From positions 4,277 to 68,276 of the forward strand of contig MWEM01000004.1 of the NCBI GenBank assembly GCA_002071085.1: 64,000 bases of DNA, read 5' to 3'. A model generated the notes under the pieces. That model did not search any database. It was not told where the DNA came from and was given only the letters and a program-made list of their open reading frames with translations. The translations under genes and the position numbers were made by a program. Source of the DNA: Thermotogota bacterium ADurb.Bin062 (GTDB lineage: Bacteria; Thermotogota; Thermotogae; MWEM01). This document shows, one piece after another, positions 1,430 to 55,840 of this stretch (its first letter is position 1; each line of letters starts with the position of its first letter).

Positions 1430-1740
1430 CGTGTGGGCATAAAAATGGCGTACTCCGCTATGGTTTGGTTCGCTTTTACGAGTTATATATATCAAGAATA
1501 CTGTGGTCCGAGGTTAAAACTGTAATACTATCGATCCCTGATCCGCGTGTTTTTGCTTTTTCTAAACTGCAGTGTGGGTATAATATCGGTGTTCCCAGAG
1601 AGGCAGGCCCACTCGAAGTCGGCCCCACGAAGAGATGGGACGCTCACGCCGCGATGACTATATGGACTAAAAATCGCGAAGTCGATTCTGACCTTGTTTC
1701 TTCATTACACCTCATAACTTGGCACACAACGAGGATTGAA
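1430..1740. repeat. Cluster of the composite intergenic repeat family: two TATAAT-containing P modules, a partial R module and the conserved terminus
   Basis: GTGTGGGCATAAAAAT (1430) and GTGTGGGTATAATATCGGTGTTCCCAGAG (1573) match copies at 51068, 19262(rc) and 15573(rc). 1625-1735 (GCTCACGCCGCGATGACTATATGGACTAAAAATCGCGAAGTCGATTCTGACCTTGTTTCT...CACCTCATAACTTGGCACACAAC) matches the reverse complement of 15041-15145 and matches 35600-35686. Confidence 0.7.
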
Positions 1741-1806
1741 ACGGTACTGTTTGTGCTATAATAAAACTCTATAAAGGTACCGTCTGTTGGCGAGGGTGTG
1801 AGGTAG

Positions 1807-2301
1807 ATGAAAAAAGTGTTCTCTATCGCGGTGGCCGTCTTTTTTATCTTGGTAGGAGTGCTCGGGTTGTTGTCTTCCCTTACGACTTTTTCGATCGATT
1901 GGCGGTTTTTGGGAGCGGCGATCCCATTATTCATCGGGCTCTTTTTCCAAGTGCAATACTTTACCGAGAAGAAAGAACCCGGATTACTGGTGCCGGGGGG
2001 TACTTTGACGGTGATCGGCATATTAGTCCTACTGGATTTTTTCTTCACCGACTCGGTGAGCGAGTATATCTGGCCTTTCTATATCCTCGCCCCGGCTGTG
2101 GGTCTTTTCCAGTTCTATTGGTTTGGCAAACGAGATCGGGCTTTGCTGATTCCGGTTACCGTGCTTTCCGTCGTGTGCGTCGTCTTTCTCCTGGTCACTC
2201 TATATCAAATTCCACCGTTTTCTTATATCTTGCCTATCTTGCTGCTCGTTATCGGAACCTTTATGCTTTACACCTACTTCAGAAAGGGGAGAAAACCGTG
2301 A
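1807..2301 (+). CDS. Integral membrane protein (4 predicted TM helices)
   Basis: 164 aa, almost entirely hydrophobic. The TGA stop overlaps the GTG start of the next gene (GTGA). Confidence 0.6.
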   Translation: MKKVFSIAVAVFFILVGVLGLLSSLTTFSIDWRFLGAAIPLFIGLFFQVQYFTEKKEPGLLVPGGTLTVIGILVLLDFFFTDSVSEYIWPFYILAPAVGLFQFYWFGKRDRALLIPVTVLSVVCVVFLLVTLYQIPPFSYILPILLLVIGTFMLYTYFRKGRKP

Positions 2302-3254
2302 AAAAACCTATCGCAGGGCTATTCTTCACATTATTGTTCTGTTTAGCCGCAGGCATTCTTTACGCAGGGGGTCCAGAGGGAATCTTATCGGAAGCGATAC
2401 GGGGGTTCACCGGTGATCATGTGGTCGGGGAACCTATAGTGGCGGGAGAGGTCGTCATCATCCCGATCTTTTCCGCGGACTTTTCTTTCGGAGAAATCTC
2501 CGGAGGCCCTGACGGAGAAGTGTGGGGAAGCGGCGCAAGCGGAAAGCTGAATTTCCTTCCTTACGCGATCGCCATCGTGGATCAAAAGGGCGTACGCGTC
2601 TTGCCGGTGTCGAATAAAAAAACGTTCTTCGAACAGGTCGTAGAAGCGCTTCCAAAACTAATGCCGATCGTTCAACAGGTGATCGGGTACTTTTCTTTAA
2701 ATTCCGGGAGCGCCGCCCTCGAGATGCCAAAAACGGGCTCCGAACAGATAATAGACGTGGAAACCTTACAACCCACCGATCGAGTGGCCGAACTCTACCA
2801 CCGTGTTCAACTGGGCTTACCACCCGAAGACTATCAGGAGATCTTAGCGGAAGCGCGCGAGTTGCTGCCTGAAGACCCGGGAAACGCCAAGCTTCACTCG
2901 GTGAACGCCTATGCGACGATGATGATGATCCAAAAAGCAGGCCCGTTGCAACAGATCCGCATGGCGCTGGAAGCTCAAAAAGAGATCGACACGGCGCTGT
3001 CTCTGGATCCCAACGATATTTTAGGTCTGATCAGCCAAGGGTGGATGAATCTACACAATCCGATGGGCCGTATCGACCTCGCCGAGGCTGCCTTCGAAAA
3101 AGTGTTGTCTATCGATCCCGAACACCTCGAGGCGCTGATGGGCCTCACGATGGTCTATGAGAAGATGGGTCGGTCCGAAAAGGTCAAGGAATGGGCCGAA
3201 AAAGGGTTGGCTTTGGACCCGGAAAACGAGTATTTCTTAAACCTCATCCATTGA
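2298..3254 (+). CDS. Secreted TPR-repeat lipoprotein/periplasmic protein
   Basis: Likely GTG start at 2298 (RBS AAAGGGGA upstream). The ORF-track N-terminal extension from 1899 overlaps the previous gene in another frame. Signal peptide KKPIAGLFFTLLFCLAAGILYAGG. C-terminal TPR-like helices (EALMGLTMVYEKMGRSEKVKEWAEKGLALDPENEYF). Confidence 0.6.
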   Translation: MKKPIAGLFFTLLFCLAAGILYAGGPEGILSEAIRGFTGDHVVGEPIVAGEVVIIPIFSADFSFGEISGGPDGEVWGSGASGKLNFLPYAIAIVDQKGVRVLPVSNKKTFFEQVVEALPKLMPIVQQVIGYFSLNSGSAALEMPKTGSEQIIDVETLQPTDRVAELYHRVQLGLPPEDYQEILAEARELLPEDPGNAKLHSVNAYATMMMIQKAGPLQQIRMALEAQKEIDTALSLDPNDILGLISQGWMNLHNPMGRIDLAEAAFEKVLSIDPEHLEALMGLTMVYEKMGRSEKVKEWAEKGLALDPENEYFLNLIH

Positions 3255-3351
3255 GCCTGTTCCATTCAGGTGAGGAATGGATGGGAGATACCGGACGAAA
3301 GCGAAGCTTAACAGCGCTTTCGTCTATTTTTGTCCTGTGTGAGTAAGATCT

Positions 3352-6096: not shown

Positions 6097-6158
6097 AACC
6101 GAATGGAGAAGCGAGAACGATCAAAAGGGAGTGGCCGATGTGAGCGGAAAAGAACACG

Positions 6159-6200
6159 TTGTGACAGAATACTTGTGTCTACACGCGCTCTTATTCTATA
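6159..6200 (+). promoter_or_regulatory. Putative sigma-70 promoter for the 6268 gene
   Basis: TTGTGT-N18-TATAAT (about 6174-6200), roughly 68 nt upstream of the start codon. Confidence 0.3.
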
Positions 6201-6267
6201 ATCCCTATGGCCACGATTCTTTATTTATTCTTTTTTGATCGGAGAAACTTAAAGAGGGGGACATTAT

Positions 6268-8487
6268 ATGGGGAGAAAGGGTCGAGATTTTCTTCTATTT
6301 TTACCGATCTTACTATCGCTTCTTGCGCTATTCTCGAGTTGTGCGCAGGTGAGCGGTCGGATAAACCCACCTGAGACGAAAATTGAGACGAAAACTCAAA
6401 AATTCGGCCCTTCGGGTGTCACCATTGCCTTTTCCGGCAAGGATGAGCGGACCCCGCCAGAAAAACTCACGTACGCCTATTGGGTCTACCGACTCGTTGA
6501 ACCTACGGAAAAAAATGCGAAGAGCGACCCCTTCACCTTCGAAAGAAAGCCTGTTCTCGAAGCCTCCTCTACCGTTGCGCAAGCGGCCTTGGACAGTCAG
6601 CGCCTTAAAGAAGGGCAGTTCTTGTTCGCTGTCGTGGCGGTGAACGAGTTCGGGTTGGCTGACGAAAGCCCGGCAGAGCACGTTTTCCGAATCGACCTGA
6701 CCCCGCCTGCTCCCCCGCAGGTCGAAGCGATTCTGAAAGCGGGCAAAGTCAAGGTGGCCTGTGACTACGACGACACGCCGGAGGATCTTGCCGGTTATGC
6801 CTTCACCGCGCTCTCCAACAACGATTCGCGAACTACGGAGCAACCCATCGGGATTTGGACTTTTCCTGCGAAGCTAGGAGAGGTTTACGAGATCGAAGTG
6901 TACGCGTACGATGATGTGGGAAATCGCTCCAAAACGGCAACCCTCGAATGCGACGCCTCGGAAGACCATCCACCGGTCTTGCTTACGGCGCTCCCCGCTC
7001 TGCTAGGCGTAAAAACCGTTGAGATCGAACTGGACTACTATGATGATTGGGATTCGCAGACCCAAATAGCCATAGAGGCGACGATCTCCAGCGTAGCCCT
7101 CAAAATCAAAGACGGTCGCCTTCAAATCAACTACGATCAGCTTTCCGAAGGCACGAACACCATCTTATTGGAGCTGAAGGATACAAACAAACACGTACAC
7201 AGAGTGCAAAAGGAAGCCTTCGTAGACCTGACGCCTCCGCAAATACCCGATGAGCTGTCTATTCAAAACCTGTCGAACGGCTATATGGTCAGTTGGAAAA
7301 AGGCGGTGGAGGCCGATTCTTATGCGCTGTACGGATCCAATGACGGTAACGATTGGGAACAGATCGGCACGACCAACGATCAGAAACTTTATTCGCCCCA
7401 ACGGTTTCTGCATTTTGCCGTTTCTGCTTTCGACAAAGCCGGCAACGAAAGCCATATCTCCTACCCCGTTCGAACTTACGATGAGATGTACTCTCCGGTG
7501 ATCAGCTCCACGATAGACAGCATCGGAGGCAATACGCTCCTGACGACGCTCTTCTCCCCTTACCTCATTAAAAGCCATCTGGTCATTCCAGATAACGTTT
7601 CTTTGGCCTTCGAGCGGGGAGTCGAGATCACCTTCGTGGACGAGGGTGAATTGGAAATAGAGGGTGAACTGATCTCCATCCCCTCTCGGACGGACCGGTA
7701 CACTCGTTTTCTCATTCAGAGGGAACCGAACGGCCAACCCTTCATTAAAGTCGGAAAGGGTAACGTATGGTTGGAAAAGATCATTTTTGAAAATCCGGGG
7801 AAAAACGGATGGTTGTTCGCGATGAGCCGGAACAGCAACATCTTAATCAACGACGCCCAAATAAAGGGTTTTGAAACCGTCGTGTGTTGCAATAGCTCCG
7901 ATAGCTTTCAGATCACGGAGTCCGAGGTGGAGGCCGAAAACTTCGTCGTTGGAGACTCCGTGAAGAATATGAAGATCACGTGCAGCGCGATTCGAGCCAA
8001 AAACGGCATTAGTCTGAACAATGTGCAGAACCTTTTCTTATCCGAGACCATTTTGGAATGCGGCGAGTCATTGATGACTACATCCGGACTCAGCAACATC
8101 AAGATAGAGAACTCGACCCTACTTTCCTCGCGTAACGGCATACAGGCTCAGAAGCTCACAGTCATTGAACTGTTCGATTCCTCGATCTCCGCATCTAATA
8201 CGGCCCTAGCGATAAATGGCGCCTCTTCCTTGAATATACGTAAATCGAAGATCAGCGATTCCGAAGTGGGTGTGTCCGCGATGCAGAGCAGTTACGTCTC
8301 TATAAGCGAAAGCGTGATAAGCGGATGCGACCGGGGCGTGCAAGTGGTCAACAGCGACCTGTCCATCAACGACTCCACCTTCGAGCAAAACGCCACGGCT
8401 GTGGCTTTACAAGGCCGTAACGCGTTCGAGCAAAAGAAAGTGGTCTTTACGGGCAACGACCTCGATATCAGCCGAGATGAACCGTAG
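6268..8487 (+). CDS. Surface/periplasmic lipoprotein with FN3-like domains and a C-terminal right-handed parallel beta-helix (pectate-lyase-like repeats)
   Basis: Signal peptide with lipobox LFSSC. FN3-like segments with conserved W/Y/G spacing. C-terminal third is rich in repeated N/S/I/V turns typical of beta-helix (NSSDSFQITESEVEAENFVVGDSVKNMKITCSAIRAKNGISLNNVQNLFLSETILE...). Confidence 0.55.
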   Translation: MGRKGRDFLLFLPILLSLLALFSSCAQVSGRINPPETKIETKTQKFGPSGVTIAFSGKDERTPPEKLTYAYWVYRLVEPTEKNAKSDPFTFERKPVLEASSTVAQAALDSQRLKEGQFLFAVVAVNEFGLADESPAEHVFRIDLTPPAPPQVEAILKAGKVKVACDYDDTPEDLAGYAFTALSNNDSRTTEQPIGIWTFPAKLGEVYEIEVYAYDDVGNRSKTATLECDASEDHPPVLLTALPALLGVKTVEIELDYYDDWDSQTQIAIEATISSVALKIKDGRLQINYDQLSEGTNTILLELKDTNKHVHRVQKEAFVDLTPPQIPDELSIQNLSNGYMVSWKKAVEADSYALYGSNDGNDWEQIGTTNDQKLYSPQRFLHFAVSAFDKAGNESHISYPVRTYDEMYSPVISSTIDSIGGNTLLTTLFSPYLIKSHLVIPDNVSLAFERGVEITFVDEGELEIEGELISIPSRTDRYTRFLIQREPNGQPFIKVGKGNVWLEKIIFENPGKNGWLFAMSRNSNILINDAQIKGFETVVCCNSSDSFQITESEVEAENFVVGDSVKNMKITCSAIRAKNGISLNNVQNLFLSETILECGESLMTTSGLSNIKIENSTLLSSRNGIQAQKLTVIELFDSSISASNTALAINGASSLNIRKSKISDSEVGVSAMQSSYVSISESVISGCDRGVQVVNSDLSINDSTFEQNATAVALQGRNAFEQKKVVFTGNDLDISRDEP

Positions 8488-9178: not shown

Positions 9179-9181
9179 GTC

Positions 9182-9255
9182 TGGCTGGGAGAGGAGGATT
9201 CGAACCTCCACTTACGGATCCAGAGTCCGTAGTCCTACCGTTAGACGATCTCCCA
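9182..9255 (-). tRNA. tRNA-Gln (anticodon CTG) with encoded CCA
   Basis: Minus-strand sequence TGGGAGATCGTCTAACGGTAGGACTACGGACTCTGGATCCGTAAGTGGAGGTTCGAATCCTCCTCTCCCAGCCA. Acceptor stem TGGGAGA/TCTCCCA, anticodon stem ACGGA/TCCGT with loop CTCTGGA, T-arm GGAGG-TTCGAAT-CCTCC. Confidence 0.85.
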
Positions 9256-9312
9256 AAACACCCGCAATTATACACGAAAGCCCTATCGATGTCAAACGGG
9301 CGCCTGCTACGG

Positions 9313-14246: not shown

Positions 14247-15032
14247 CTATTTATAGGCGCGGACCATCCTTCCTACCTGGTTGGTGATCACGCCGTCTAT
14301 GATGCTGCGGTCTCTTAAAAACTCGGTGACCGGGATATCGTCGATCGTCCACCAAAAGAGTCGGATGTTGGAAGCCTTGACCTTTTGCAAGAATCGAACG
14401 GTCCCCTCTACAGGCAAACGGTTGAAGAGTTGCATAGGCAGGTGCAGCGAGTAGGGGAGGTATCCGGCCAAAAGTGCTTCGAAGGAGGTGGTGTTGACCG
14501 AAGTATGCGACACGGACACGTATTTCACCAGTCCTTCGCCGATCAATAGACCGATTTTGACTTCGGGTAGCGCGTTTCGAAGTTCTTCCAACGGCTCAAA
14601 TAAGAAGGACGAAAACACGATCTGAAAAGACGGTTCGTACGTCTTCATCAGTTTGACGAGCGGGGCAACGGCATCCGGTGACTTGATCTCCACGTTCAGG
14701 AACCCGTCGTCGGGAAAGGATTCAAAGACTTCATCCAACAACGGAATAGACAACCCGTTCTGGACTTTTGCTTTGCGGATATCCGCGTAGTCGAGTTCGG
14801 CGACCTTGCCAGGGATACCCGCCACGCGTAAGGTATCCTCGTCATGGATCACGACGACCTTGCCGTCTCTCGACGCTCGGATGTCGAGTTCCACGCCATC
14901 TGCCCCGGCTTCCATCGCCTTTCGAAATGCCAAAGTGGTGTTTTCAGGGTACTCGCTCGAGTAGCCACGGTGACCAAAGATGAGAAAAGACACAGAAACC
15001 ACCTCGTTTCGTTTTGACAGTCTATTATACAC
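14247..15032 (-). CDS. glpQ: Glycerophosphodiester phosphodiesterase (GP-PDE, GlpQ/UgpQ family)
   Basis: FGHRGYSSEYPENTTLAFRKAMEAGADGVELDIRASRDGKVVVIHDEDT is the GP-PDE signature. Confidence 0.8.
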   Translation of the reverse strand: MYNRLSKRNEVVSVSFLIFGHRGYSSEYPENTTLAFRKAMEAGADGVELDIRASRDGKVVVIHDEDTLRVAGIPGKVAELDYADIRKAKVQNGLSIPLLDEVFESFPDDGFLNVEIKSPDAVAPLVKLMKTYEPSFQIVFSSFLFEPLEELRNALPEVKIGLLIGEGLVKYVSVSHTSVNTTSFEALLAGYLPYSLHLPMQLFNRLPVEGTVRFLQKVKASNIRLFWWTIDDIPVTEFLRDRSIIDGVITNQVGRMVRAYK

Positions 15033-15040: not shown

Positions 15041-15680
15041 GTTTATTCAGTCATCAGGGTGTGTGTCAAGTTATGGGGTGTACTCAAGAAACAAGGCCAA
15101 AATCGATCACACTGTTTTTAGCCCATATAGTCATCGCGGCGTAAGCGCCCCTTCTTTTCGCGACGGCGCGATACGCTTTTGTGCCTGTCTTGAAAAACAG
15201 GGTTCGCACAGAGGGCACAGAGAACACAGAGAAAAGAATCTTGGGAACGCCTTGCGAACGCCAAACTTTAGTTTGGCATGGTTTGTGAAAATAGAAATGC
15301 AGCAGCGCGTATCGCAAAGGTATGAAAGTATCGTGGGGTCCCGTTGGTTACCCCGCGATAACTTCACACAGGCATCGCGGCGTAAGCGTCCCTTCTTTTA
15401 GCGACGGCGCGATACCTCTTTTCCGAGCCTATCGCGGCTAAAGAAGGCTAAGGCCGGATCGCGGGGTCGTAAAAACCACTTACCCCGCGATAACCTCACA
15501 AGAGCCTCAGCGTAAAAAGGATAAAAAGCGGACCTCCTCCTCATATCTTATTTTGTCGCATTTCGATGTTATACCCACACGAACTCCCCGCACCTGTCAC
15601 CGTTTCGTGTATAATTCACTAGGTGAAAAACCGCAGCCGTTAGACGCTTGTAAAATGACAAACGATCAAAACCGAGGTGG
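15041..15680. repeat. Composite intergenic repeat cluster (modules: terminus(rc), R, T, Q hairpin, R, S hairpin, P(rc))
   Basis: R: CGCGGCGTAAGCGCCCCTTCTTTTCGCGACGGCGCGATACGCTTTTG at 15133-15182 and 15374-15421. S: GATCGCGGGGTCGTAAAAACCACTTACCCCGCGATAACC at 15458-15496 (perfect 7-bp GC stem). T: 15183-15240 matches the reverse complement of 35222-35280. Q: GCCAAACTTTAGTTTGGC at 15260-15277. P-module inverse with extended -10 GTGTATAAT at 15573-15616. Confidence 0.8.
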
Positions 15681-15686: not shown

Positions 15687-18600
15687 GTGGCAAAAATCAA
15701 GTTCGCGGAGACTTGGTGGGGAGAGAGCTGGATCAGGGCCCTCGAAGAAATCGACGTGGATACGAATCGGCTGCCAAGGGGCCGCACCTATGCGAGAAAC
15801 GGGTCGGTTCTAGAAATTAAACGAACGAGAACGGGGACGATCCAAGCGAGGGTGCAGGGGCGTCGACCCGCCCCCTATCGTATACGTATCGCTTTAACGG
15901 AATGGTCGGAAGAGCAAAACGCCGCCGTCCTCGATCTAATACAAAACAGCCCCGCGCTCTCCTCCCAGCTTTTGATCGGTCAGATGCCCGAAAGTCTCGA
16001 GGCGGAGTTGGAGAAGCTTGGTGCCCGGATCTTTCCCTCTTCTTGGCGCGAAATGACGGCCTCTTGCAGTTGCCCCGACTGGGCGAATCCCTGTAAGCAC
16101 CTCGCCGCCGTCTATTACCTGCTGGCCGTCGAAATAGACAAAGACCCCTTCTTGCTCTTCGAAATGCGTGGGCTGAAAAAGAAACGGATCTTAGAAACCG
16201 CGCGGCTTACCGATCAGACCTTGAAAAGCGCGGGGTGGGTTTTCGACGTATCTCAAACTCCTGTGACCGATACATACGAAGCTCCGACCCCCACGACGGA
16301 GGAAATCGAAAGCTATATCGTGCAACCCTATCCCATCGATAAGGCGTTGGGAGTTTTAGAAAAAAATCCCCGGTTTGACGATGGCCCCCTCATCCTGCAG
16401 CTTCTGCCCACGACTTACCGGAAGATTAGAGATTATTGGAACGGAGAAGCGTTCATCGAACCCGAAGAGCCCCTTGCTCATTCGTCTTCGATAACGATAG
16501 AGCATCGCGAAGAGGGACCCGTGTTTTTGGTAGATGAGCTTTACAAAAAAGAGGTTTCTGAGCTCACAGTCGCAGATTTTTTGTTTCGGATGGAAGGGGT
16601 CAGCCTCTCGCCGCTTGCAGAAGATCACGCTACGATGCGTTGGGTGAAAGACACTCTCTCCCTCGCCCGAAGACTCATCGCGTTAAACAGCTGGGTTCCC
16701 GTTCTCTACTCGGTAGGACAAGGCGAGGACTTCGGGATCCGCTACGCCCCCGTCTACTCCCAACCGACTCTTCGCCAGAAGAAAGTGGCGTTGAACGCTT
16801 CGGTTCCCACCGGACTTATTCACGACGCCAAAAACCGCCCTCTGAAGAGAGAACAGAGCGTGGACTATCTCTTGTCCGTCTTTTTGACACAGATGGTGCA
16901 AGAGCCTTTAGGCGGTGTGCTGCCTTACTCGTCGATAGAAATGGCGCGCGTCTTCTTCCTTGGGGAGGTGTATAAGGCGGATCATTTTCAACGGCAACAG
17001 ACGAAAACGGCTGTGCAAAACTGGCTGACCCCGTTACACCTTTCCGACTCGGAGCACAATCTCGTCCTGGACATCCAGGTAACGAAAAAAACCCAGTTTT
17101 CGTTGACGGTCTCCGTGAAGCGCAAGCGCGACCTGTTTATCGACGCCGTACCGATGCAAAACTTCCTGAAAACCGCCGCGAACGGGGGCGAAAAAGAAGG
17201 GGCGCTCAAGCAGCTCGCCTGCCTTTCCGAATGGATTCCTCCCCTAAAGCGCTCTTTCGAAGAACGAACGATCCCTATCACCGTCGATGAGCTCATCCAG
17301 TTACTCAGCCAAGCGCGAGACTTCCTCGGTTTTTTCGGAGCGGAACTCGTCGTGCCGAAAGAGTTTAAGGACTTAACGCGTCCACGGGTCTTCGCGAGCG
17401 CAAGAATGAAAAGCGAACGAACGAAAGGCGTTTTAAACTTCGAAAACCTCCTCCAATTCGAATGGCGGGTCCAGTTCGGAGAAGACAACCTGTCTATAGA
17501 GGAGTTTGCGGCATTGATGAAGGGTGCGGAGCGGATCGTACTTTTCAAAGACCAGTATTGCTTGGTAGACCCTATCGAAGCGAAGAGGATGGTTGAGAAA
17601 TATATGACTTCGCCCATCATCAGTGGGCCGGAGGGGCTGCGCGCCGTATTCGCCCAGGAGCTCGACGGATACCCGCTACGCTACGGAGAGGACGTCGAAC
17701 GGCTGTTGAAGGGTTTGCGAAAAGAGCGGCGGTGCGAAGCACCGGGTACCCTCAATGGCCAATTGCGACCGTATCAGTTGAAAGGGTACCAATGGATGTT
17801 GTCGAACCTGCACAACGGGTTCAACATATGCTTGGCGGACGATATGGGTCTTGGTAAAACGATACAGGTGATCGCGGTGTTGCTCAAACTGCGCGAAAAT
17901 AAAGAGTTGACGCGCCCCGCCTTGGTCATTTGCCCTGCTTCCGTAACGCGTAACTGGCGAAAAGAGATAGAGACCTTCGCGCCGGACCTGAAGTGCGAGC
18001 TGTATGGCGGGTCGAATCGCGAGATATCAGCAGGGAAAGACGTTTGGATAACGACGTACGGTATGGTCCGATCCGAGGTAGAACGCTTGAAGAGTTTTGA
18101 GTGGAGCGTCGTAATCGTCGATGAAGCGCAGAATATCAAGAACCCCGATGCCGACCAATCTAAAGCTATCGCCCAGCTCAACGGGCAATATAAGATCGCG
18201 ATGAGCGGGACTCCAGTAGAAAACCGCGTGGCGGAACTATGGAGTCTGTTTAACTTCATTATGCCGGGATACTTAGGTCCCAGGAAAAAATTCCGAGAAG
18301 AATTCGCGATCCCCATCGAACGCCTGAACGACCCGGTTAAGACCAAGACGCTGAAACAGGCAGTCGAACCGTTTTTACTGAGAAGGTTAAAATCAGACAA
18401 GAACATCATCAAAGACCTTCCGGAAAAAGTCGTTCGGGAGGTCTACGTCACGCTCAAACCCGAACAAGCTGCTTTGTACGGCACCGTCTTAGAAGCCGCG
18501 GTAGGCGAGATAGAAAGCGCCCAAGGCATCAAGCGGAAAGGAAAGGTATTTTGGCTTCTCACCGCGCTCAAACAAATCTGCAACCACCCCGTGTCCTATA

Positions 18601-19157
18601 CCAAGAGCGGGACTCCCGTCGCCGAGCACTCCGGAAAGAGCGAGAAAGCCTTTGAATTGCTGAAAGAAGTCATCAAAAGCGGTGAAAAGGCGTTACTCTT
18701 CACCCAATACCGCGAGATGGGCGCCTTATTGGCTGCGATGACACCCGAAAAGCTAGGAATCGACCCGCTCTTTTTCCACGGCGGGCTCACCCCTAAAGAG
18801 CGAGAAAACCTCATCCTCGACTTTCAGCAGCAACCCTATCATCCATTAATGATCATTACACTGAAGGCGGGTGGCACGGGCTTAAACCTGACCGCCGCGA
18901 CCACCGTTATCCATTACGACCTATGGTGGAACCCGGCCGTCGAAAACCAGGCGACGGACAGGAGCTACCGAATCGGTCAAAAAAAAAGCGTCACCGTCCA
19001 TCGGTTACTGACCGAGAACACCTTTGAAGAACGCGTGAACGAGCTCTTACAAAAAAAGAAAGAGCTCTCCGACGCCATCGTCGGCGCTGGCGAGCATTGG
19101 ATCACGGAGATGAGCAACGAGGAAATCCGAAGCCTTTTTGAAATGAAAACAACCTAA
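15687..19157 (+). CDS. SNF2-family helicase with N-terminal SWIM zinc finger
   Basis: GTG start with RBS GAGGTGG. SWIM CxC...CxH (TASCSCPDWANPCKHLAAVYYLL). SNF2_N (LRPYQLKGYQWMLSNLHNGFNICLADDMGLGKTIQ; DEAQNIKN). Helicase_C (GGTGLNLTAATTVIHYDLWWNPAVENQATDRSYRIGQ). Confidence 0.85.
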   Translation: MAKIKFAETWWGESWIRALEEIDVDTNRLPRGRTYARNGSVLEIKRTRTGTIQARVQGRRPAPYRIRIALTEWSEEQNAAVLDLIQNSPALSSQLLIGQMPESLEAELEKLGARIFPSSWREMTASCSCPDWANPCKHLAAVYYLLAVEIDKDPFLLFEMRGLKKKRILETARLTDQTLKSAGWVFDVSQTPVTDTYEAPTPTTEEIESYIVQPYPIDKALGVLEKNPRFDDGPLILQLLPTTYRKIRDYWNGEAFIEPEEPLAHSSSITIEHREEGPVFLVDELYKKEVSELTVADFLFRMEGVSLSPLAEDHATMRWVKDTLSLARRLIALNSWVPVLYSVGQGEDFGIRYAPVYSQPTLRQKKVALNASVPTGLIHDAKNRPLKREQSVDYLLSVFLTQMVQEPLGGVLPYSSIEMARVFFLGEVYKADHFQRQQTKTAVQNWLTPLHLSDSEHNLVLDIQVTKKTQFSLTVSVKRKRDLFIDAVPMQNFLKTAANGGEKEGALKQLACLSEWIPPLKRSFEERTIPITVDELIQLLSQARDFLGFFGAELVVPKEFKDLTRPRVFASARMKSERTKGVLNFENLLQFEWRVQFGEDNLSIEEFAALMKGAERIVLFKDQYCLVDPIEAKRMVEKYMTSPIISGPEGLRAVFAQELDGYPLRYGEDVERLLKGLRKERRCEAPGTLNGQLRPYQLKGYQWMLSNLHNGFNICLADDMGLGKTIQVIAVLLKLRENKELTRPALVICPASVTRNWRKEIETFAPDLKCELYGGSNREISAGKDVWITTYGMVRSEVERLKSFEWSVVIVDEAQNIKNPDADQSKAIAQLNGQYKIAMSGTPVENRVAELWSLFNFIMPGYLGPRKKFREEFAIPIERLNDPVKTKTLKQAVEPFLLRRLKSDKNIIKDLPEKVVREVYVTLKPEQAALYGTVLEAAVGEIESAQGIKRKGKVFWLLTALKQICNHPVSYTKSGTPVAEHSGKSEKAFELLKEVIKSGEKALLFTQYREMGALLAAMTPEKLGIDPLFFHGGLTPKERENLILDFQQQPYHPLMIITLKAGGTGLNLTAATTVIHYDLWWNPAVENQATDRSYRIGQKKSVTVHRLLTENTFEERVNELLQKKKELSDAIVGAGEHWITEMSNEEIRSLFEMKTT

Positions 19158-19209
19158 CCCGCGAGCTATCCTCTCCGTACTGAGATCGCCGCCGGGGCGC
19201 TGTATTGCT

Positions 19210-19239
19210 GGGAACGCCGGACTAAAGTTCGGCGTTCCC
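19210..19239. repeat. Perfect 13-bp-stem palindromic hairpin (Q module) GGGAACGCCGGACTAAAGTTCGGCGTTCCC
   Basis: Self-complementary. Related copies at 55806-55823, 20583-20600 and 51256-51273. Confidence 0.8.
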
Positions 19240-19257
19240 ATTTTGGCGTTCCCCGAT

Positions 19258-19332
19258 ATTATACCCACACTATTATACCCATCCTCGAGTTGCATCGTGT
19301 ATAATACCCGTGAAATGATTTCCCGTAGGGAG
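19258..19332 (+). promoter_or_regulatory. Repeat-borne promoter-like module upstream of the Rpn gene
   Basis: ATTATACCCACACTATTATACCC (inverse P module), CGTGTATAATACCCGTG (extended -10 TGTATAAT at about 19294-19301) and RBS GGGAGG 8 nt before the ATG at 19340. Confidence 0.4.
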
Positions 19333-19339
19333 GCCACAG

Positions 19340-20365
19340 ATGGAAAGACTGAATAACCCCCACGATAGGTTTTTCAAAGAAGTGCTGGGGGATGTCGCAA
19401 ACACCCAAGCGTTCTTAGAGACCTATCTCCCCCCTGAAGTCTTACGAGCGATCGATGTGGGCACGATACAGGCGGAAAAGGACAGCTTCATAGAACAAGA
19501 CCTGAAGGAGTTCTACGCGGATTTATTGTTTCGGGCGAACATACGAAACCGAGAAGCCTACGTGTACATTCTACTGGAGCACAAGAGCTATAGCGACTAT
19601 AACGTAGGTGTACAGCTGCTCAGGTATATGTCTGCGATATGGGACAAAGAAATAAAGAAACAAAAGAACAGACGACTACCGCTGATCTTACCGATAGTGC
19701 TGTACCAAGGGAAAGAGAAGTGGGGAGTGTCCACGCAGTTTGCGGACAGGATCGAAGGGGTCGAAACGATGGAAGGGTCTTTGAAAAAAGCTATTCCCCA
19801 CTTTGAGTATTACCTATACGATTTTTCGTCAAATAGTGGAGAGGAGATCAAAGGGCCGGACGATCTACGCCTGTATCTGGAAACGATCAGGATGGCCTCG
19901 ATCAAAGACCCGGAAAAGTTCAATGAAGCGTACGTAAGAATCACCACCGTCTTCGTCACGCGGGAAGAAACGGAAACAAGTGAAAGGCTTTACGATACTT
20001 TTATTCACTATCTCTATTATTTGATCGCACGAGAGGATTTCTTGAGACTGGTACAACTGACGCGAACGGTATCGGTGGAAAGGAGTGAAAGGATGCAAAC
20101 GATAGCGGAATGGCTTAAGCAAGAAGGGATGGAAAAAGGACTTGAGGAAGGTATGTTAAGAGGACTCGAAAGAGGGATAGAAGTCGGACGCGAGCAACTT
20201 CTTTGGAAGCAGATCTCCAAAAAATTCCCACAAATCCCGCGGACATACTACGAAAAGCTGAAAACGCTTACAATAGACCAGCTTGACAACCTAGGCTTAG
20301 AGCTGATGGATATGCAAAATGTGGAAGAGCTGAAAAAGCATTTGCATGCGAAAGCCGGACTTTAG
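19340..20365 (+). CDS. Rpn/YhgA-family recombination-promoting nuclease (PD-(D/E)XK, transposase_31) with a DUF4351-like C-terminus
   Basis: The N-terminus MERLNNPHDRFFKEVLGDVANTQAFLETYLPPEVL matches the Rpn family start (HD..FK..F......FL...LP). Acidic/His core (DLLF...YILLEHKS). C-terminal helical EKGLEEGMLRGLERGIEVGRE repeats. Visibly more A-rich than neighbouring genes. Confidence 0.7.
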   Translation: MERLNNPHDRFFKEVLGDVANTQAFLETYLPPEVLRAIDVGTIQAEKDSFIEQDLKEFYADLLFRANIRNREAYVYILLEHKSYSDYNVGVQLLRYMSAIWDKEIKKQKNRRLPLILPIVLYQGKEKWGVSTQFADRIEGVETMEGSLKKAIPHFEYYLYDFSSNSGEEIKGPDDLRLYLETIRMASIKDPEKFNEAYVRITTVFVTREETETSERLYDTFIHYLYYLIAREDFLRLVQLTRTVSVERSERMQTIAEWLKQEGMEKGLEEGMLRGLERGIEVGREQLLWKQISKKFPQIPRTYYEKLKTLTIDQLDNLGLELMDMQNVEELKKHLHAKAGL

Positions 20366-20979
20366 TCTGGAATGTTTTGGAAGAAAAAACAGGGTCCGTG
20401 TGGAGAGCACGGAGGATTCTTTGCTGGGAACTCCACACTTTTGTGTGGCAAGGTTATAGATTTTTCTATGCTGGAAACAGCGAACTTCAGTGCGGTATGG
20501 GTTCATTGTTCTCTCCGTGCCCGCCGTGCAACCCCTTTTTTCAAGACCTGCCAACTTAAAAGTTGGCGTTTCCAGAAACCAAGCCGAACAGAAGTTCGGC
20601 CTTCCCAAAGTCCGCTCTCAGGAAAACAAAAAGACCTGCCGCGCAAACAGCTCGCTCCACGGTAAATCGGGGTTTCGGTTACCAAAATCAACACGTACCC
20701 TTCCAAGACCGTAGCGAAGAAACCTTGCAATTTCGATGCCAGATGAGATACAATATATACGGAGTCTTCCTCGGATACGCCGTTTTCTTTCGGGGCTCAA
20801 CCGGGGAAGGAGAACGAGCGGCCGCGGCTATCTCGTTTACGATACGAAGTGGCTTCGGTTGAAACGGGTATTCGGATTTTTGGTTTTCCTTTTCCGGTTT
20901 TAATCGTCGAGCGATTAAGACCGTCGAAAATCAGAAAACGTTTCTTTGTGAACAGCGGTTATGAGGGGGGATCATTCGG
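20366..20979. repeat. 614-bp non-coding region containing repeat modules and at least three hairpins
   Basis: CCACACTTTTGTGTGG (20440), GCCAACTTAAAAGTTGGC (20550-20567), GCCGAACAGAAGTTCGGC (20583-20600). The T-module copy CTCTCCGTGCCCGCCGTGCAACCCCTTTTTTCAAGAC (20500-20548) matches 35230-35278. No convincing ORF. Confidence 0.7.
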
Positions 20980-32106: not shown

Positions 32107-33126
<1,020 letters not shown>

Positions 33127-33142
33127 TCGTCGCAAAAACATC

Positions 33143-33168
33143 GGCACGCTTCGGCGTGCCTTTTTTTA
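33143..33168 (+). terminator. Intrinsic terminator/attenuator hairpin between gap and pgk
   Basis: GGCACGCTTCGGCGTGCC followed by TTTTTTT. Confidence 0.55.
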
Positions 33169-33179
33169 AGGAGGAGAGA

Positions 33180-35702: not shown

Positions 35703-35711
35703 GGTATAATG
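35703..35711 (+). promoter_or_regulatory. Putative extended -10 (TGGTATAAT) promoter for the oppA-like gene
   Basis: TTATGGTATAATG, 50 nt upstream of ATG 35760. Confidence 0.35.
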
Positions 35712-35759: not shown

Positions 35760-37265
35760 ATGAAGAAATCCCTTTTGTTTTTGCTTGTCTTAACGGTTTT
35801 TTTTAGTTTCTGTTTTGGCGCACGCGCGGGCGGGGATTTGAAGTTCGCAGTGCAGGTGGAACCGGCCGGATTCGATCCCAATTTGGCGACGGCGTTCGGC
35901 TCACACCGGTTACTTGAGCACGTTTACGAAGGGCTCTTGAGTTTTAACGAAAATATGGATATCGTGCCGGGATTGGCTGAGAGTTTTGAGGTCCCCGAAC
36001 CCACGAAGATCGTCTTCCACCTTCGAAAAAACGTCCTTTTCCATGACGGCACTCCGTTCACCGCGGAGGATGTGCTCTACACCTTTAAGAGGATACAGGA
36101 CCCGGCCTTCGCCTCTCCGGCCGCTTCCTACTACACGGAGGTCTCTTCTATCACGGCCCCGGACCCTTACACCGTGGTTTTCACACTTAAGGTGCCGATG
36201 GTCAACTCTCTGCTTCTAAATTTCGCCGGAGTAAACAGCGCGATCGTCTGTAAAAAGACCGTCGAATCCGGCGTCAATATGCAGCTCCAGACGAACGGTA
36301 CCGGCCCCTTCAAACTGAAAGAATACGCCGCAGGGAATTATATTGCGCTTCAAAAGAACGAGAGGTATTATGTCCCGGGACTCCCGTTACTCGATAGCCT
36401 GACCTTCGTGGTCATCCCGGAAGAGATCTCTCGTAGTTCCGCGTTGAGAAACGCGGACGTTCAGATGGCTCAGATTATGGAGCCGTTGAGCTTAAATACC
36501 TTCCCAGCGCAGCGCTTCGTGACCTACCGCGTCTCGACTTTGCCCTATCTCCTGTTAGGGATCAACAACGCTGCGAAACCCTTCGACAACGTTTTGGTTC
36601 GGAGAGCTTTGAGCTACGCGATCAACCGAGAAGAACTCGTGGAGATGGTGGCTTTCGGCGAAGGCACGGTTACCGGTCCGTTGAACCCGTCTCTGAAGAC
36701 ATGGGCGTTGTTGCCCGAAGCCTTTGACGAATACTCTTACAACCCCGAAAAGGCGAAAGCGTTGTTAAAAGAGGCCGGCTATCCGAACGGTTTCTCTTTC
36801 GAGGCCGTTACATACGCCCAATACAGTCTCGACAAAATCGGAGAGGCGATTCAGGCGCAGCTGGCCCTCGTGGGTATCCAGATGAAAGTCGACGTCGCGG
36901 AGTTCGGGATTTTCGTCAAGCGATGGCGCGAGATCGACTTCCAAACCTTCCTTTCTCTCAACGGCGGGTCCACGGAGCCCGATATCCAGTTCTATCGGAC
37001 CTTCAAATCCGATGGCGCGACCAACAAGTTCAATTTCAAGAACGCGAAAGTCGACGAACTTCTTGAGAAGGGGCGTCAGGCGCTGGACTTAGAAGAACGC
37101 GTCGAGATTTATCGCGCCCTTCAGAGGCTTCTGGTCGAAGAGAATCCGTTCCTCTTCCTTTACTCTCCAAACAACCTCTATGTGTCTTTACCGGAGGTTA
37201 AGGGCTTCGTGCCGATGAGCAACCAGAGCCTGATTATGCTCAAAAAAACGTGGTTGGATAAATAG
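35760..37265 (+). CDS. ABC transporter substrate-binding protein, family 5 (oligopeptide/dipeptide OppA/DppA-like)
   Basis: ATG 35760 after RBS AAAGGAGGAAGG. Signal peptide MKKSLLFLLVLTVFFSFCFGARAGG. SBP_bac_5 organisation. The ORF-track start 35709 is unlikely. Confidence 0.8.
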   Translation: MKKSLLFLLVLTVFFSFCFGARAGGDLKFAVQVEPAGFDPNLATAFGSHRLLEHVYEGLLSFNENMDIVPGLAESFEVPEPTKIVFHLRKNVLFHDGTPFTAEDVLYTFKRIQDPAFASPAASYYTEVSSITAPDPYTVVFTLKVPMVNSLLLNFAGVNSAIVCKKTVESGVNMQLQTNGTGPFKLKEYAAGNYIALQKNERYYVPGLPLLDSLTFVVIPEEISRSSALRNADVQMAQIMEPLSLNTFPAQRFVTYRVSTLPYLLLGINNAAKPFDNVLVRRALSYAINREELVEMVAFGEGTVTGPLNPSLKTWALLPEAFDEYSYNPEKAKALLKEAGYPNGFSFEAVTYAQYSLDKIGEAIQAQLALVGIQMKVDVAEFGIFVKRWREIDFQTFLSLNGGSTEPDIQFYRTFKSDGATNKFNFKNAKVDELLEKGRQALDLEERVEIYRALQRLLVEENPFLFLYSPNNLYVSLPEVKGFVPMSNQSLIMLKKTWLDK

Positions 37266-37274
37266 AATGGAAAC

Positions 37275-37305
37275 CCCCCGCTTCGGCGGGGGGTTCTAAT
37301 CTCAC
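37275..37305 (+). terminator. Intrinsic terminator/attenuator between the SBP gene and the permease genes
   Basis: AAACCCCCCGCTTCGGCGGGGGGTTCT: perfect 8-bp GC stem, tetraloop TTCG, then TTCT. Confidence 0.6.
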
Positions 37306-50994: not shown

Positions 50995-51059
50995 ACCTCC
51001 GTACAGAGTATGAAAGGTACGGTACCTCCGAAGATTATAACACAAATCGCGAGCGGACT

Positions 51060-51640
51060 TTTGTGAGGTGTGGGTATAATATCGGGGTGCGCCAAAATGG
51101 GAACGCTGAACTTTAGTTCGGCAGGTTCAAAGAAAAGATGGTTTCGCACAGAGTACGCAGAGAGCACAGAGGAAACATAAACCTGGGTGTTGACTCTCCT
51201 AAACACCTCTCTTCTTTGTGACCTCCGTGGTCTCCGTGGGAGATTTTTTAGATATGCCAACTTAAAAGTTGGCGTTCCCAACCCACAAAGTATCGCGCCG
51301 TCGCATAGAGAAAAAACGCTTACGCCGCGATGGGTCCGGAAAAAAACGTTTCGCGCCATCGAAAGAAGAAGAGGCGCTCACGCCGCGATGTCTGTGTGGG
51401 TCATCGCGGGGTAAGTGGTTTTTACGACCCCGCGATCCCGCTTTTGTTTTTTTCTAAAGTTCCGCGATGGGTCCGGAAAAAAACGTTTCGCGCCGTCGCA
51501 AGAAGAAGAGGCGCTTACGCTGCGATGCCTGTTTGGGTCATCGCGGGTAAAAAGGCAGTCCAGAAAAACTCGCCGCGCGAAAGCGTGGAGCCGACCGGCG
51601 GCATACCTTCTGTTAATCCCAGAAGGGAGTTGATTTAGTT
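51060..51640. repeat. Composite intergenic repeat cluster including a 137-bp tandem duplication
   Basis: P module GTGTGGGTATAATATCGGGGTG (51068). Q hairpin GCCAACTTAAAAGTTGGC (51256-51273). R(rc)+S(rc) unit (S hairpin 51401-51437). Unit CCGCGATGGGTCCGGAAAAAAACGTTTCGCGCC.TCG.AAGAAGAAGAGGCGCT.ACGC.GCGATG.CTGT.TGGGTCATCGCGGG repeated at 51325 and 51462. Confidence 0.8.
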
Positions 51641-52336: not shown

Positions 52337-52345
52337 CCCGGCTCT

Positions 52346-53910: not shown

Positions 53911-53919
53911 GGTACTCCT

Positions 53920-55548
53920 CTATCGTTTCGTGATCAAGAAAAATATCTGAGAAAATACGCCATTCCAGGGATGCCCGTTGATGTCCGCCTGCAACAACCC
54001 GCCAAAGGTGGGGTCTTCGAAGAGGAACAACTCCGGTATCGGGAAAGTCCGGTCTATCCATTGATAATAGAGCTGTGGGAAGAAGGCTTTCAAGTCGGAA
54101 AAGTTTTCTGGGTGGGCGAAATACATCCCGGGGTAGGCCAATACGTGAAGTTCATCGATGAAACGGCTGTCGATTCCCCTTAGATCCAAGAACCCCCGTA
54201 CGCGGGAGAACAGGGGCTCTTCGCTCTCTATTGAAAAAAGTGTTACAGCTTTCGTTGGATCGGAGACGTAGTCGATCGTTTCTCGCAGTATCGCCAAAAG
54301 CCGTTCGGACAACGGGGAGCCGGTGTCCAAGCGCGCGAGGTTCAGGCCGAACGGCCCTTCTTCCTCCGGGTCGTCGAGGAATGGCAGTTGATCGTTCTCG
54401 ATCATCCAGATCATCGTTTCGCAAAACCCGACGATTGCCCCTTTCCAGTTCTCCACGGCGTGCGTGCCACCATTTTCTTCTTCTGGTCGGAAGGCCAAAA
54501 ACCCCTCATCGAACAGCGCGCACCATTCTAAGTTGGAGATTTTTCCGTCGTGGTTTGCGTCGAGAAAATCCGCGGCATAGGCGTACGCGGACTCTATCCC
54601 CTCTTCTCGGTTAATTTTTGAGAATCGGTTCAAAAAATCTTGGAGGGCGCTTCCGAAATCGAGTTGGTAGATAACGAGCGGTTCCAAGGCGCTCAGTTCT
54701 CCCGTCACCAATAAATATAGCCAGCGCATCTCCGTAGAACCGATCGTCAGAACGTCCTCCTCGTCGAAAACCGGTTCCCACGCGTCTAGGTCCAGCTCAT
54801 CGATTTCTCCGGATCGAATCAGATCGAACAGTTCTTTGTCAAACCACGCGTCGCCCGAGGAGGGATCGAAGAACCGGCTGATCTTTTCGTCCGGAGGGAG
54901 CTCATTTTTACCGATTAAGGCTTCTGCGATGATCTTCCAAACTGGCGCGCCCTGTGCAAACCAAGAGAACAGCAAAGGCGTTTCAGGTTCTAAGACGCCG
55001 TTTTGATTCCAATCGAGATGATTCGGGAAGATATCGACCGGTTCAGGAGAAGCCAACGCCCGCTCAAGGCACGATTTGGCCTCTTCCAATAGCGCGACGG
55101 TTTCGGCGATCTCACGTTGCCCCTCTTGTATCCACCATCGTATCCAGGAGAGATCAAGGTCGTCTTCCGCGCGTAGGACCCTCGTTTTAAAGAACCAATT
55201 GAGTAACCTCTTCTGTAATTCAGCCTTTAGAGCGCTTTTCGCGTTCGCGCGAAGGGCGCCTGGCAGCGCATAGTCTATGGGACCGATTCTCTTGAAAATG
55301 GAGATCAGGCGTTGATTTCCTCGGAATAGCGTGACCAGAGAGAGGCCGAGGTTAGCTTGAGGTCGCGTCGGGTTTCTCCTTAACGCTTCTCGAAAGCAGT
55401 TTTCCGCTGTTCGTAAGTCCCCGGAGTTGAAATGTCGAAAACCGGCTTCTATTGTGGGTCCGATATCGATATACGCGCAACCGTAGAAGAAGAGGGTAAA
55501 TACAAACAGAAGGATCGCCAAACCTATCGTTCTTTTCACATCGATCAC
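53920..55548 (-). CDS. Secreted/lipoprotein hypothetical (542 aa) with N-terminal TPR-like helices
   Basis: Signal peptide with Cys (LFFYGCAY). Acidic, W-rich soluble region. No catalytic motif recognised. Confidence 0.5.
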   Translation of the reverse strand: MIDVKRTIGLAILLFVFTLFFYGCAYIDIGPTIEAGFRHFNSGDLRTAENCFREALRRNPTRPQANLGLSLVTLFRGNQRLISIFKRIGPIDYALPGALRANAKSALKAELQKRLLNWFFKTRVLRAEDDLDLSWIRWWIQEGQREIAETVALLEEAKSCLERALASPEPVDIFPNHLDWNQNGVLEPETPLLFSWFAQGAPVWKIIAEALIGKNELPPDEKISRFFDPSSGDAWFDKELFDLIRSGEIDELDLDAWEPVFDEEDVLTIGSTEMRWLYLLVTGELSALEPLVIYQLDFGSALQDFLNRFSKINREEGIESAYAYAADFLDANHDGKISNLEWCALFDEGFLAFRPEEENGGTHAVENWKGAIVGFCETMIWMIENDQLPFLDDPEEEGPFGLNLARLDTGSPLSERLLAILRETIDYVSDPTKAVTLFSIESEEPLFSRVRGFLDLRGIDSRFIDELHVLAYPGMYFAHPENFSDLKAFFPQLYYQWIDRTFPIPELFLFEDPTFGGLLQADINGHPWNGVFSQIFFLITKR

Positions 55549-55614
55549 TCCCTACTCTATAGTTTCTTACAAGAATTATACACGATCTGGTAAAAAAACA
55601 AAACCCGGTATGGG

Positions 55615-55840
55615 TCTACTTATCGCGGCGTAAGCGCCCCTTCTTTTCGCGACGGCGCGATACGCTTTTTTCTGGGCCTATCGCGGCCAAAAGCAAAAGG
55701 GGGATCGCGGGGTCGTAAAACCACTTACCCCGCGATAACCTCGCACGGGCATCGCGGTGTAAGCGTTTAAGGGCTTTCGAGAGCTTACTGAAAAGCAAAA
55801 AAACGTGCCGAACTAAAGTTCGGCGTTCCCGATTTGTTGC
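55615..55840. repeat. Composite intergenic repeat cluster (R, linker, S hairpin, partial R, Q hairpin)
   Basis: R at 55622-55672. S GATCGCGGGGTCGTAAAACCACTTACCCCGCGATAACC at 55703-55740. Q GCCGAACTAAAGTTCGGC at 55806-55823 followed by GTTCCC. Confidence 0.8.

Follow-up and report, generated by a model that had tools for sequence, protein, structure and literature searches.

We analysed a 64,000-nt stretch (the window) of contig MWEM01000004.1 from Thermotogota bacterium ADurb.Bin062, a metagenome-assembled genome (MAG) of an uncultured organism from an anaerobic digester. Seven of its intergenic regions, A to G, hold non-coding repeat elements that we call P-Z arrays, and a gene of the Rpn family lies between two of them. 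The arrays keep a single polarity, are gained and lost, expand and contract in R-S units by recombination between neighboring copies, frequently end at a set distance from a promoter, and are associated with Rpn genes. The features are listed here by window coordinates and strand.

1431–1442, plus strand: partial P terminus (GTGTGGGCATAA); its outer end is 28 nt from a leftward TGATATAAT box (hexamer 1397–1402, minus strand).
1568–1734, plus strand: array A, with P at 1568–1594, a degenerate R at 1628–1661, and Z at 1675–1734; the Z end at 1728 is 28 nt from the TATAAT at 1757–1762, upstream of a TPR/YtfJ-like gene.
15054–15583, minus strand: array B, a complete element, with P at 15558–15583, S at 15451–15500, R at 15368–15424, S' at 15325–15368, Q at 15252–15281, T at 15187–15239, R at 15127–15184, and Z at 15054–15112; the Z outer end at 15059 is 29 nt from the -10 box of the GDPD gene (15024–15029, minus strand), and the P outer end at 15580 is 29 nt from the -10 box of the SNF2 helicase gene (15610–15615).
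19208–19273, minus strand: array C, with P at 19248–19273 and a Q hairpin at 19208–19238; the P outer end at 19270 is 29 nt from the TGTATAAT box of the Rpn gene (hexamer 19300–19305).
From ~19285–19297 to ~20341–20354: multi-copy Rpn unit.
19340–20365, plus strand: Rpn-family gene, subfamily 1, with Transposase_31 and DUF4351 (OQC32568.1 / BWX67_00258).
20383–20608, plus strand: array D, directly 3' of the Rpn gene, with an inverted T pair (t at 20383–20425, T at 20501–20549) around hairpins and Q at 20545–20575 and 20580–20608.
35225–35680, plus strand: array E, in the order T, R, S, R, S, R, Z, with an R-S unit of 133–138 nt; the Z end at 35676 is 28 nt from the TATAAT at 35705–35710, upstream of an ABC substrate-binding-protein (SBP) gene.
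51065–51550, plus strand: array F, in the order P, Q, t, T, Q, R, R, S, R, partial S; the P outer end at 51068 is 28 nt from the gatCAB -10 box (51034–51039, minus strand).
55618–55866, minus strand: array G, with P at 55839–55866, Q at 55806–55830 followed by a T-run, S at 55698–55744, and R at 55618–55675; a truncated R at ~55749–55766 was seen by repeat finding and inspection and lies below the profile-search call. The array lacks Z, and neither of its ends is flush with a promoter.

The sequence of all seven intergenic regions was inspected directly. Six modules (P, Q, T, R, S, and Z) are jointly common to them and match nothing else in the window. The R core, allowed up to three mismatches, gave 6 window matches against 0.00 expected, and repeat finding recovered the families R, S, P-Q, T, and Z with an R-to-R spacing of 133 to 138 nt. 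When the seven regions were compared with the whole window by sensitive self-BLAST, all homology fell within those regions. Using nhmmer profiles built from the window copies, we counted ten R (one of them the degenerate copy in region A), six S, seven Q, six T, five P plus the partial P at 1431, and three Z. A first-pass annotation of this DNA had proposed that the seven regions are assembled from shared modules, and each module was found where it had been placed. That annotation had also put the repeats at more than 3 kb, an overestimate, as the arrays measured from first to last module come to 2,162 nt in all (~3% of the window) and the annotation's own intervals sum to ~2.7 kb. Its 55-nt terminus, our Z, had been assigned to seven or more loci and occurs at only three (A, B, and E).

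Distribution, polar order, and anatomy of the arrays

The modules are not confined to the window, a question that the first-pass annotation had raised as a check. We scanned the 40-nt R core over genome-collection contigs and obtained at least 16 matches, about half of them chance matches in GC-rich genomes; among the matches listed were two Thermotogaceae MAGs and three MAG contigs labeled otherwise. A metagenome scan with the R repeat yielded at least 118 loci, hereafter the R-anchored loci, covering 0.94 Mb. In these, the module profiles found 443 R, 389 Q, 346 T, 312 S, 102 Z, and 31 P copies, with arrays making up ~6% of this biased sample. A further locus, L161, was reached through an Rpn homologue, and hence was ascertained independently of the repeats; it carries four arrays in 19 kb. 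A repeat search of viral contigs and PLSDB gave no matches, and we rejected a phage or plasmid origin on that basis. A search of the accessible literature turned up no account of such repeats in Thermotogota, and the array family appears to be restricted to one lineage.

The three oddly labeled contigs are L001 (Spirochaetota), L015 (Pseudomonadota), and L008 ('bacterium', with an Rpn fragment as well). L001 shares 96% identity with L035, and L015 shares 91 to 92% with L118. These labels probably reflect mis-binning caused by the repeats. Many partial proteins lie at contig ends, which suggests that assemblies break at the arrays.

Oriented by P, a single grammar fits all window arrays: P opens the array, a Q hairpin, a tT palindrome, R, and S follow in repeated units, and Z closes it. 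The first-pass annotation had described the same modules in varying order and orientation. What varies is only the strand of the array from locus to locus, with P first, Z last, and R and S always co-oriented. We tallied 227 non-identical arrays, 160 of which have at least two polar modules; R, S, P, and Z share one polarity in 150 of the 160, compared with 38.6 expected under random orientation. In 63 of 64 cases an array ends with Z, and in 8 of 8 it starts with P; the number of internal units per array ranges from 0 to more than 10.

The internal modules are palindromic units. Q is a hairpin of 18 to 30 nt and a true palindrome with a GCC/GGC stem foot, S is a true palindrome with a 10-bp stem, and R is an imperfect hairpin. 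R and S have the stem foot ATCGCG...CGCGAT in common, and Z opens with the same motif in loopless form. T occurs alone or as an inverted pair with hairpins enclosed, the tT unit being a long palindrome. Tandems of R only have a period of 56 or 70 nt (70 and 56 nt were seen in L001 and L022), and a mini element of ~95 nt consists of P, a terminator-like hairpin, and a Z-like end. The loop is the only variable part of R, with its length fixed at 11 nt. One strand of the loop is pyrimidine-rich (CCCCTTCTTTT or CTCCTTCTTTT) and resembles the 3' end of 16S rRNA (15135–15174 and all other R copies); the opposite strand is Shine-Dalgarno-like (AAGGAG, AAGGGG).

The two ends of the arrays resemble one another. 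When the outer 20 nt of P (GTGTGGGTATAATATCGGGG) are compared with the reverse complement of Z (GTGTGTGTCAAGTTATGGGGTG), 15 of 20 positions are identical with one gap, a degree of identity reached by 172 of 20,000 shuffles (0.9%). Judged by this alignment, P and the reverse-complemented Z look like imperfect terminal inverted repeats (GTGTGKGT...). These ends, like the fixed promoter distance and the presence/absence polymorphisms described below, are points that the first-pass annotation did not contain.

Promoter docking, gain, and loss

An alignment of 66 non-redundant Z copies shows strong conservation up to ...AACTTGACACACAC, followed by unrelated sequence and then, very often, by (T)ATGnTATAAT at a fixed distance. 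We called a promoter box at 7 or more of 8 matches to TGnTATAAT. By this measure 23 of 53 non-redundant Z ends have a box 32 to 34 nt from the TTGACA of Z, with the terminal CACAC 27 to 29 nt from the hexamer; the control rate, for such a box anywhere in a random 60-nt stretch, is 1.6%. Boxes also lie 26 to 31 nt away from 13 of 33 P ends read outward. Taken together, the outer ends sit 28 to 30 nt before an outward-reading box in ~40% of non-redundant cases, an arrangement that we refer to as docking. The docked ends in the window are the partial P, the Z of A, the Z of E, and the P of F, each at 28 nt, and the Z of B, the P of B, and the P of C, each at 29 nt.

The genes downstream of docked Z ends are unrelated to one another and have normal ribosome-binding sites. 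Because window promoters without arrays have no CACAC at -41, we take CACAC to be part of the element and not of promoters generally. At L161, a complete 420-nt Z...P element (6114–6535) fills a divergent intergenic region, with Z 28 nt and P 35 nt from the -10 boxes. The termini are much more conserved than the neighboring 28 nt, and no common motif is visible in the 28-nt gap between ends and boxes. A -10 box is missing at the docking distance from over half of the Z and P ends, and several of them adjoin gene 3' ends. Across contexts, 33 arrays lie in divergent, 14 in convergent, and 45 in tandem intergenic regions. Candidate causes for the stop at about -41 are a target choice guided by RNA polymerase or the -10 box, selection on an upstream element, and loss of a non-essential spacer. 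Spacer erosion is the least attractive of these because the spacing is sharp (±1 nt) and the termini are intact.

We compared the window with a sister species in which the GAPDH protein is 92% identical and gene order is kept over 22 kb. Arrays B to E are absent from it, and the 22 kb of synteny contains no significant module match, only a single weak R match (E = 0.018) that we take as chance. The sister species nevertheless keeps the promoters of the SBP gene (GTTTTTGTGGTATAAT) and the GDPD gene (CGCAGATAGTGTATAAT) together with their 5' leaders. Since these cores exist there without an array, the promoters are independent of the arrays. The alignment of the two species is lost upstream of about -23, and 4-fold degenerate sites are ~50% identical. 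At such near-saturation, the exact insertion junction is not readable from this comparison.

Variation is also seen among closer relatives. Array E has three or two R units depending on the strain, and the 133-nt difference equals one R-S unit whose breakpoints fall inside R, the pattern that unequal homologous recombination would leave. Within the species, a 23-nt variation was found in array B, and the strain variants of arrays F and G did not differ in length. L105 has flanks 95% identical to those in the window; its array F additionally holds S-R-Z, a complete antisense Rpn gene of subfamily 2, and further modules. The 90% identity clusters of further window proteins contained no sister-species variants.

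The genes around arrays B, C, and D differ between genomes as well. The segment with the SNF2/SWIM/DUF3670 helicase and Rpn genes (15687–20365) is strain- or species-variable and bracketed by these three arrays. The sister species (L147:2803-5043) instead has a PAS/HisKA histidine kinase and a 157-amino acid open reading frame (ORF) between the GDPD and Xer-like genes. The ~370 nt between array D and the Xer-like recombinase gene (20610–20979) contain no modules and no convincing ORF, and it is there that the 157-amino acid ORF is called in the sister species. We also considered a defense system at this site and rejected it, as PADLOC returned only generic SNF2-helicase matches (ZorD, DpdE, DrmD), with no complete system and nothing for Rpn.

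Rpn genes among the arrays

The gene at 19340–20365 matches Transposase_31 (PF04754) at 187.6 bits against a cutoff of 21, over profile positions 1 to 195 of 203, and TIGR01784 at 69.6 against 52.1. Read by eye, its translation contains a D...E-x-K pattern (ADLLF...ILLEHKS). The protein also has a DUF4351 match (E = 1.6e-11) and EGxx-type 4-residue repeats at residues ~262 to 285. Of the window's proteins, this one alone recurs in the R-anchored loci (25 loci among the matches listed). An unbiased clustering of the 571 ORFs of the R-anchored loci listed likewise placed Rpn first, with 19 non-redundant members; the other recurrent families (STAND-like ATPase, ABC, MCP, and FGE-sulfatase) are generic paralogues. 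The same 571 ORFs contained no recurrent transposase or recombinase besides Rpn, and none of their recurrent families is a repetitive extragenic palindrome (REP)-associated tyrosine transposase (RAYT).

The first-pass annotation had singled out the Rpn gene as a nuclease candidate flanked by the repeats, and this suspicion is borne out. We looked for modules within 250 nt of those Rpn copies for which both flanks were available, with similar-sized ORFs in the same loci as controls. Modules lie on both sides of 13 of 17 Rpn copies and on one side of the other 4, compared with both sides of 6 of 211 control ORFs (Fisher p = 1e-13). The arrays on either side of each Rpn copy always have the same polarity, so the gene is bracketed by direct repeats.

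Two Rpn subfamilies can be distinguished, with ~85% and ~48% identity to the window protein, and both are present in this MAG; the lineage contains at least 20 Rpn clusters at 90% identity. The subfamily-2 copies with polar flanking modules are antisense to the array polarity, with the exception of L081. Their junctions are conserved: in seven subfamily-2 loci (L036, L037, L074, L078, L090, L105, and L130) a reverse-complemented Z begins 45 to 47 nt past the stop codon, and in L054, L081, L091, and L110 the Z-like terminus of a mini P..Z element occupies the same place past the Rpn stop. The -10 box of the Rpn promoter is again preceded, at ~29 to 30 nt, by an element end (P, Z, or R then GACAC), and the boundaries of the conserved Rpn unit fall in or next to repeat modules.

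Other candidates for a partner enzyme were discarded. The claim that no RAYT or IS200-type gene is present was upheld for the window by protein domain scans and by the Pfam labels of called genes, and with no recurrent transposase but Rpn among the 571 ORFs, we rejected a RAYT or another transposase in this role. An IS5-like DDE transposase (DDE_Tnp_1_2 and DUF772) at L022:509-2560 was rejected as well, as its ends are unrelated and it interrupts the loop of an S hairpin. The arrays may be safe landing sites for other mobile elements.

Some further genes were noted near the arrays. L118 has a PDDEXK_2 'nuclease family transposase' gene among R copies, a second PD-(D/E)XK 'transposase' family there, and its order over L118:1722-6541 is R, FGE-sulfatase paralogue, R, PDDEXK_2, R, FGE-sulfatase paralogue, R; FGE-sulfatase genes recur near arrays. 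STAND-like ATPases (ATPase_2 / nSTAND1) of ~560 to 620 amino acids form the second most recurrent family, with 12 non-redundant members, and are often near Rpn (L111:4280-6145, L111:8262-9935, and 11 further loci). The window itself has a fused phosphoglycerate kinase/triose-phosphate isomerase gene at 33081–35144 (NF010569, 925 bits; called as 654 amino acids, with a start near 33180), a fusion typical of Thermotogota and consistent with the phylum. The sole Rfam match in the window at gathering threshold is a tRNA gene at 9185–9255 on the minus strand (RF00005, 64.7 bits), unrelated to the repeats. A weak RsmY-like match at 37200–37295, at the end of the SBP gene, scored 24.4 bits against a gathering score of 57 (E = 0.074) and is most likely due to chance.

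Interpretation and comparison with known systems

With moderate confidence, we read the seven regions as one lineage-specific family of non-coding, polar mosaic repeats, similar to pneumococcal BOX elements and to the bacterial interspersed mosaic elements (BIMEs) of enterobacteria, which is selfish or neutral and co-propagates with Rpn genes. The arrays would on this account be selfish or neutral DNA and not conserved regulators. They would spread as whole P...Z units, or by their ends, docking at the upstream edge (about -41) of sigma-70-type promoters, and would later be remodeled by unequal or ectopic homologous recombination. Rpn genes would co-propagate with them in a manner analogous to RAYT genes in REPtrons, with Rpn acting either as the initiating nuclease or as a passenger carried from array to array by recombination at the direct repeats on its flanks. 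The interpretation offered by the first-pass annotation is thereby partly supported.

Several points weigh against this reading. The Rpn genes are located beyond the outer ends of P and Z, whereas the transposase gene of an insertion sequence (IS) would lie between them. The E. coli Rpn proteins are Mg-dependent nucleases of low sequence specificity (PMC5350276), and they have been described as toxins with an intragenic antitoxin and an antiphage role, not one in transposition (PMC10400941). No fresh insertion with a clean empty site was captured in the genomes compared. The target-site duplications that had been proposed as a check were looked for by eye at two complete elements, array B and L161:6114-6535, and found at neither. 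The sister species is too diverged to polarize gain versus loss. The R-anchored loci are an ascertained sample with partly redundant contigs, and as MAG assemblies break at repeats, copy number per genome cannot be read from them. Finally, the precision of the spacing could instead reflect a host function of the termini.

That last point is the core of one rival, in which the arrays are host-functional elements upstream of promoters: the P and Z termini, at about -41 to -100, would serve as UP-like sequences, as binding sites for a factor, or to insulate adjacent and often divergent promoters from one another topologically or transcriptionally, with the spacing held by selection. It would account well for the sharp 28 to 30 nt between CACAC and TATAAT at both kinds of end, in front of genes that are unrelated, for the enrichment in divergent regions (33, against 14 convergent, with 45 tandem), and for termini conserved far beyond the adjacent 28 nt. 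Yet the same promoter cores are array-free in the sister species, most Z and P ends lack a box at the right distance and several abut gene 3' ends, and the arrays vary among strains in content and length within a family that appears lineage-restricted. We consider this rival unlikely. A second rival reverses the relation between the partners, so that Rpn would be the selfish element and the arrays its landing pads, entered by cuts in the arrays followed by repair or by Campbell-type recombination through the direct repeats, whereas the arrays would spread by other means. The co-polar flanking arrays, the Rpn unit that ends in or beside modules, and the difference between L105 and the window, which amounts to an Rpn segment inside an orthologous array, are all in keeping with it. 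So is the view of Kingston et al., who weighed a homing-endonuclease-like or eroded mobile-element origin for the Rpn family (PMC5350276). Arrays might, however, simply gather around any accessory gene, though the control ORFs argue otherwise, and the proposal leaves promoter docking unexplained. We hold it as a less likely possibility.

A reading as small structured RNA genes or long 5' leaders, which the first-pass annotation had entertained, would make P a promoter, Q, R, and S the RNA structure, and Z or a hairpin the 3' end. P does carry a perfect TATAAT that reads into the array, and in array G a Q hairpin is followed by a T-run. S folds at a z score of about -4 relative to shuffled sequences, and the stems of Q covary (GC 37 and AT 30 at one pair), as would fit a palindrome kept at the DNA or the RNA level. 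Covariation, which the first-pass annotation had named as a check, was seen only in Q; RNAalifold gave no meaningful consensus for the S and T alignments. The remaining evidence points away from RNA. S and Q fold equally on both strands, and R and Z fold no better than shuffles. Stem mismatches of the G.U and A.C kinds number 14 and 15 in S and 26 and 29 in R, and at these equal frequencies there is no sign of selection on one transcribed strand. No array matched Rfam at gathering threshold or even at E ≤ 1. P is in the minority (31 copies against 443 R in the loci listed), and the arrays are absent from the sister species. Array polarity follows the downstream gene in the five window arrays that have one, but not generally, as tandem contexts divide about evenly (24 versus 21). 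We regard the RNA reading as very improbable. A degenerate clustered regularly interspaced short palindromic repeat (CRISPR) array or an attC-type integron cassette array, with repeats of 36 to 41 nt, periods of 55 to 138 nt, and an Xer/integron-integrase-like gene nearby, was suggested by the regular 70- or 56-nt R periods in L001 and L022 and by the tyrosine recombinase gene at 20980–21849. We rejected it: the would-be spacers are themselves repeats (S, T, Q), the window contains no cas genes, there are no ORFs between units, and the Xer-like recombinase is kept in the array-free sister species and does not recur in the repeat-anchored loci listed.

Within our preferred reading of a selfish or neutral family that travels with Rpn genes, a more ambitious version is conceivable, if doubtful. 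Here the Rpn proteins would be the active enzymes of a REPtron-like system that recognize hairpins with the ATCGCG foot along with the GTGTG termini, cut at a defined spacing from -10 DNA or polymerase-bound promoters, place P-Z at about -41 (±1 nt), and move their own genes between arrays. If true, this would provide the first natural substrate and a mobility mechanism for the PF04754 'putative transposase' family, as well as a bacterial example of promoter-guided integration. What promoter docking implies in any case is insertion guided by promoters or else an upstream promoter element of a new kind. The role of the Rpn family is debated (transposase, recombination nuclease, or antiphage toxin), and this lineage offers candidate substrates in R, S, P, and Z along with natural polymorphisms, such that the suspected mobility of Rpn becomes testable in it. 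On the practical side, assemblies of these digester MAGs probably break, and contigs are probably mis-binned, in part because of the arrays.

Intergenic repeats of a mosaic build are common; what is unusual here is the strict polar order, the docking at promoters to within ±1 nt, and the tight link to Rpn. The closest architectural parallel is the BOX element of Streptococcus pneumoniae (boxA-boxB(n)-boxC), which is likewise intergenic, non-coding, and rich in hairpins, with two distinct terminal modules, a variable number of internal ones, a strain-variable copy number, and no transposase of its own (Croucher et al. 2011, PMC3049150). The resemblance is architectural only, as BOX elements belong to another phylum and homology of sequence is not to be expected, and the arrays described here have more module types (Q, tT, R, S), reach 1.2 kb, dock their ends 28 to 30 nt from promoters, and are linked to Rpn genes. 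To our knowledge, neither promoter docking nor Rpn linkage has been reported for BOX elements.

The likeness to REP, BIME, and miniature inverted-repeat transposable elements (MITEs), with longer units, that the first-pass annotation had drawn holds. REPs are short imperfect palindromes (20–40 bp) in intergenic DNA, as are Q, S, and R, and in REPtrons too dispersed palindromic units form mosaic intergenic clusters and a nuclease gene of unclear autonomy lies among its presumed substrates (Di Nocera et al. 2013, PMC3733652). The consensus sequences here have no terminal GTAG/CGTC, however, and the stem foot is ATCGCG/CGCGAT for R and S and GCC/GGC for Q. Unlike the alternating units of BIMEs, the present ones are co-oriented (150 of 160 arrays), and the associated gene is a PD-(D/E)XK Rpn-family gene, with no RAYT (HUH Y1) in the window or among the recurrent ORF families of the loci listed. 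MITEs with an internal minisatellite in P. gingivalis share the inverted-repeat-like ends, the non-coding character, and the variable internal tandem unit (PMC4596501). MITE-like presence/absence polymorphism is also found here, in the sister species without arrays B to E, in L105 at array F, and in the two or three units of array E. The arrays differ from MITEs in the lack of target-site duplication at the two elements inspected, in their terminal repeats, identical at only 15 of 20 positions, and in that no parent IS with the same ends was found. The Correia elements of Neisseria are promoter-bearing MITEs, and they resemble the arrays in having promoter-like sequence at an end.

Putative mobile promoters, in which highly similar upstream sequences precede unrelated genes of one genome (Matus-Garcia et al. 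2012, PMC3488235), offer another parallel. In the arrays, by contrast, the sharing stops at about -41 and the core promoters (from about -23 to -7) are gene-specific, with the SBP and GDPD cores array-free in the sister species. The E. coli Rpn/YhgA-like proteins resemble those described here in their Transposase_31 domain, in a variable C-terminal tail with short repeats (DUF4351; the RpnS region), and in their several paralogues (PMC5350276; PMC10400941). We found no link to repeats reported in the literature on these proteins. The copies in E. coli are few, dispersed, and of low activity, whereas this lineage has at least 20 clusters at 90% identity, nearly all inside arrays and with conserved junctions. 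Against this background, the repeat family itself is new, and its two distinguishing features, the promoter-flush termini at both ends and the linkage to Rpn, were not found described in any other system.

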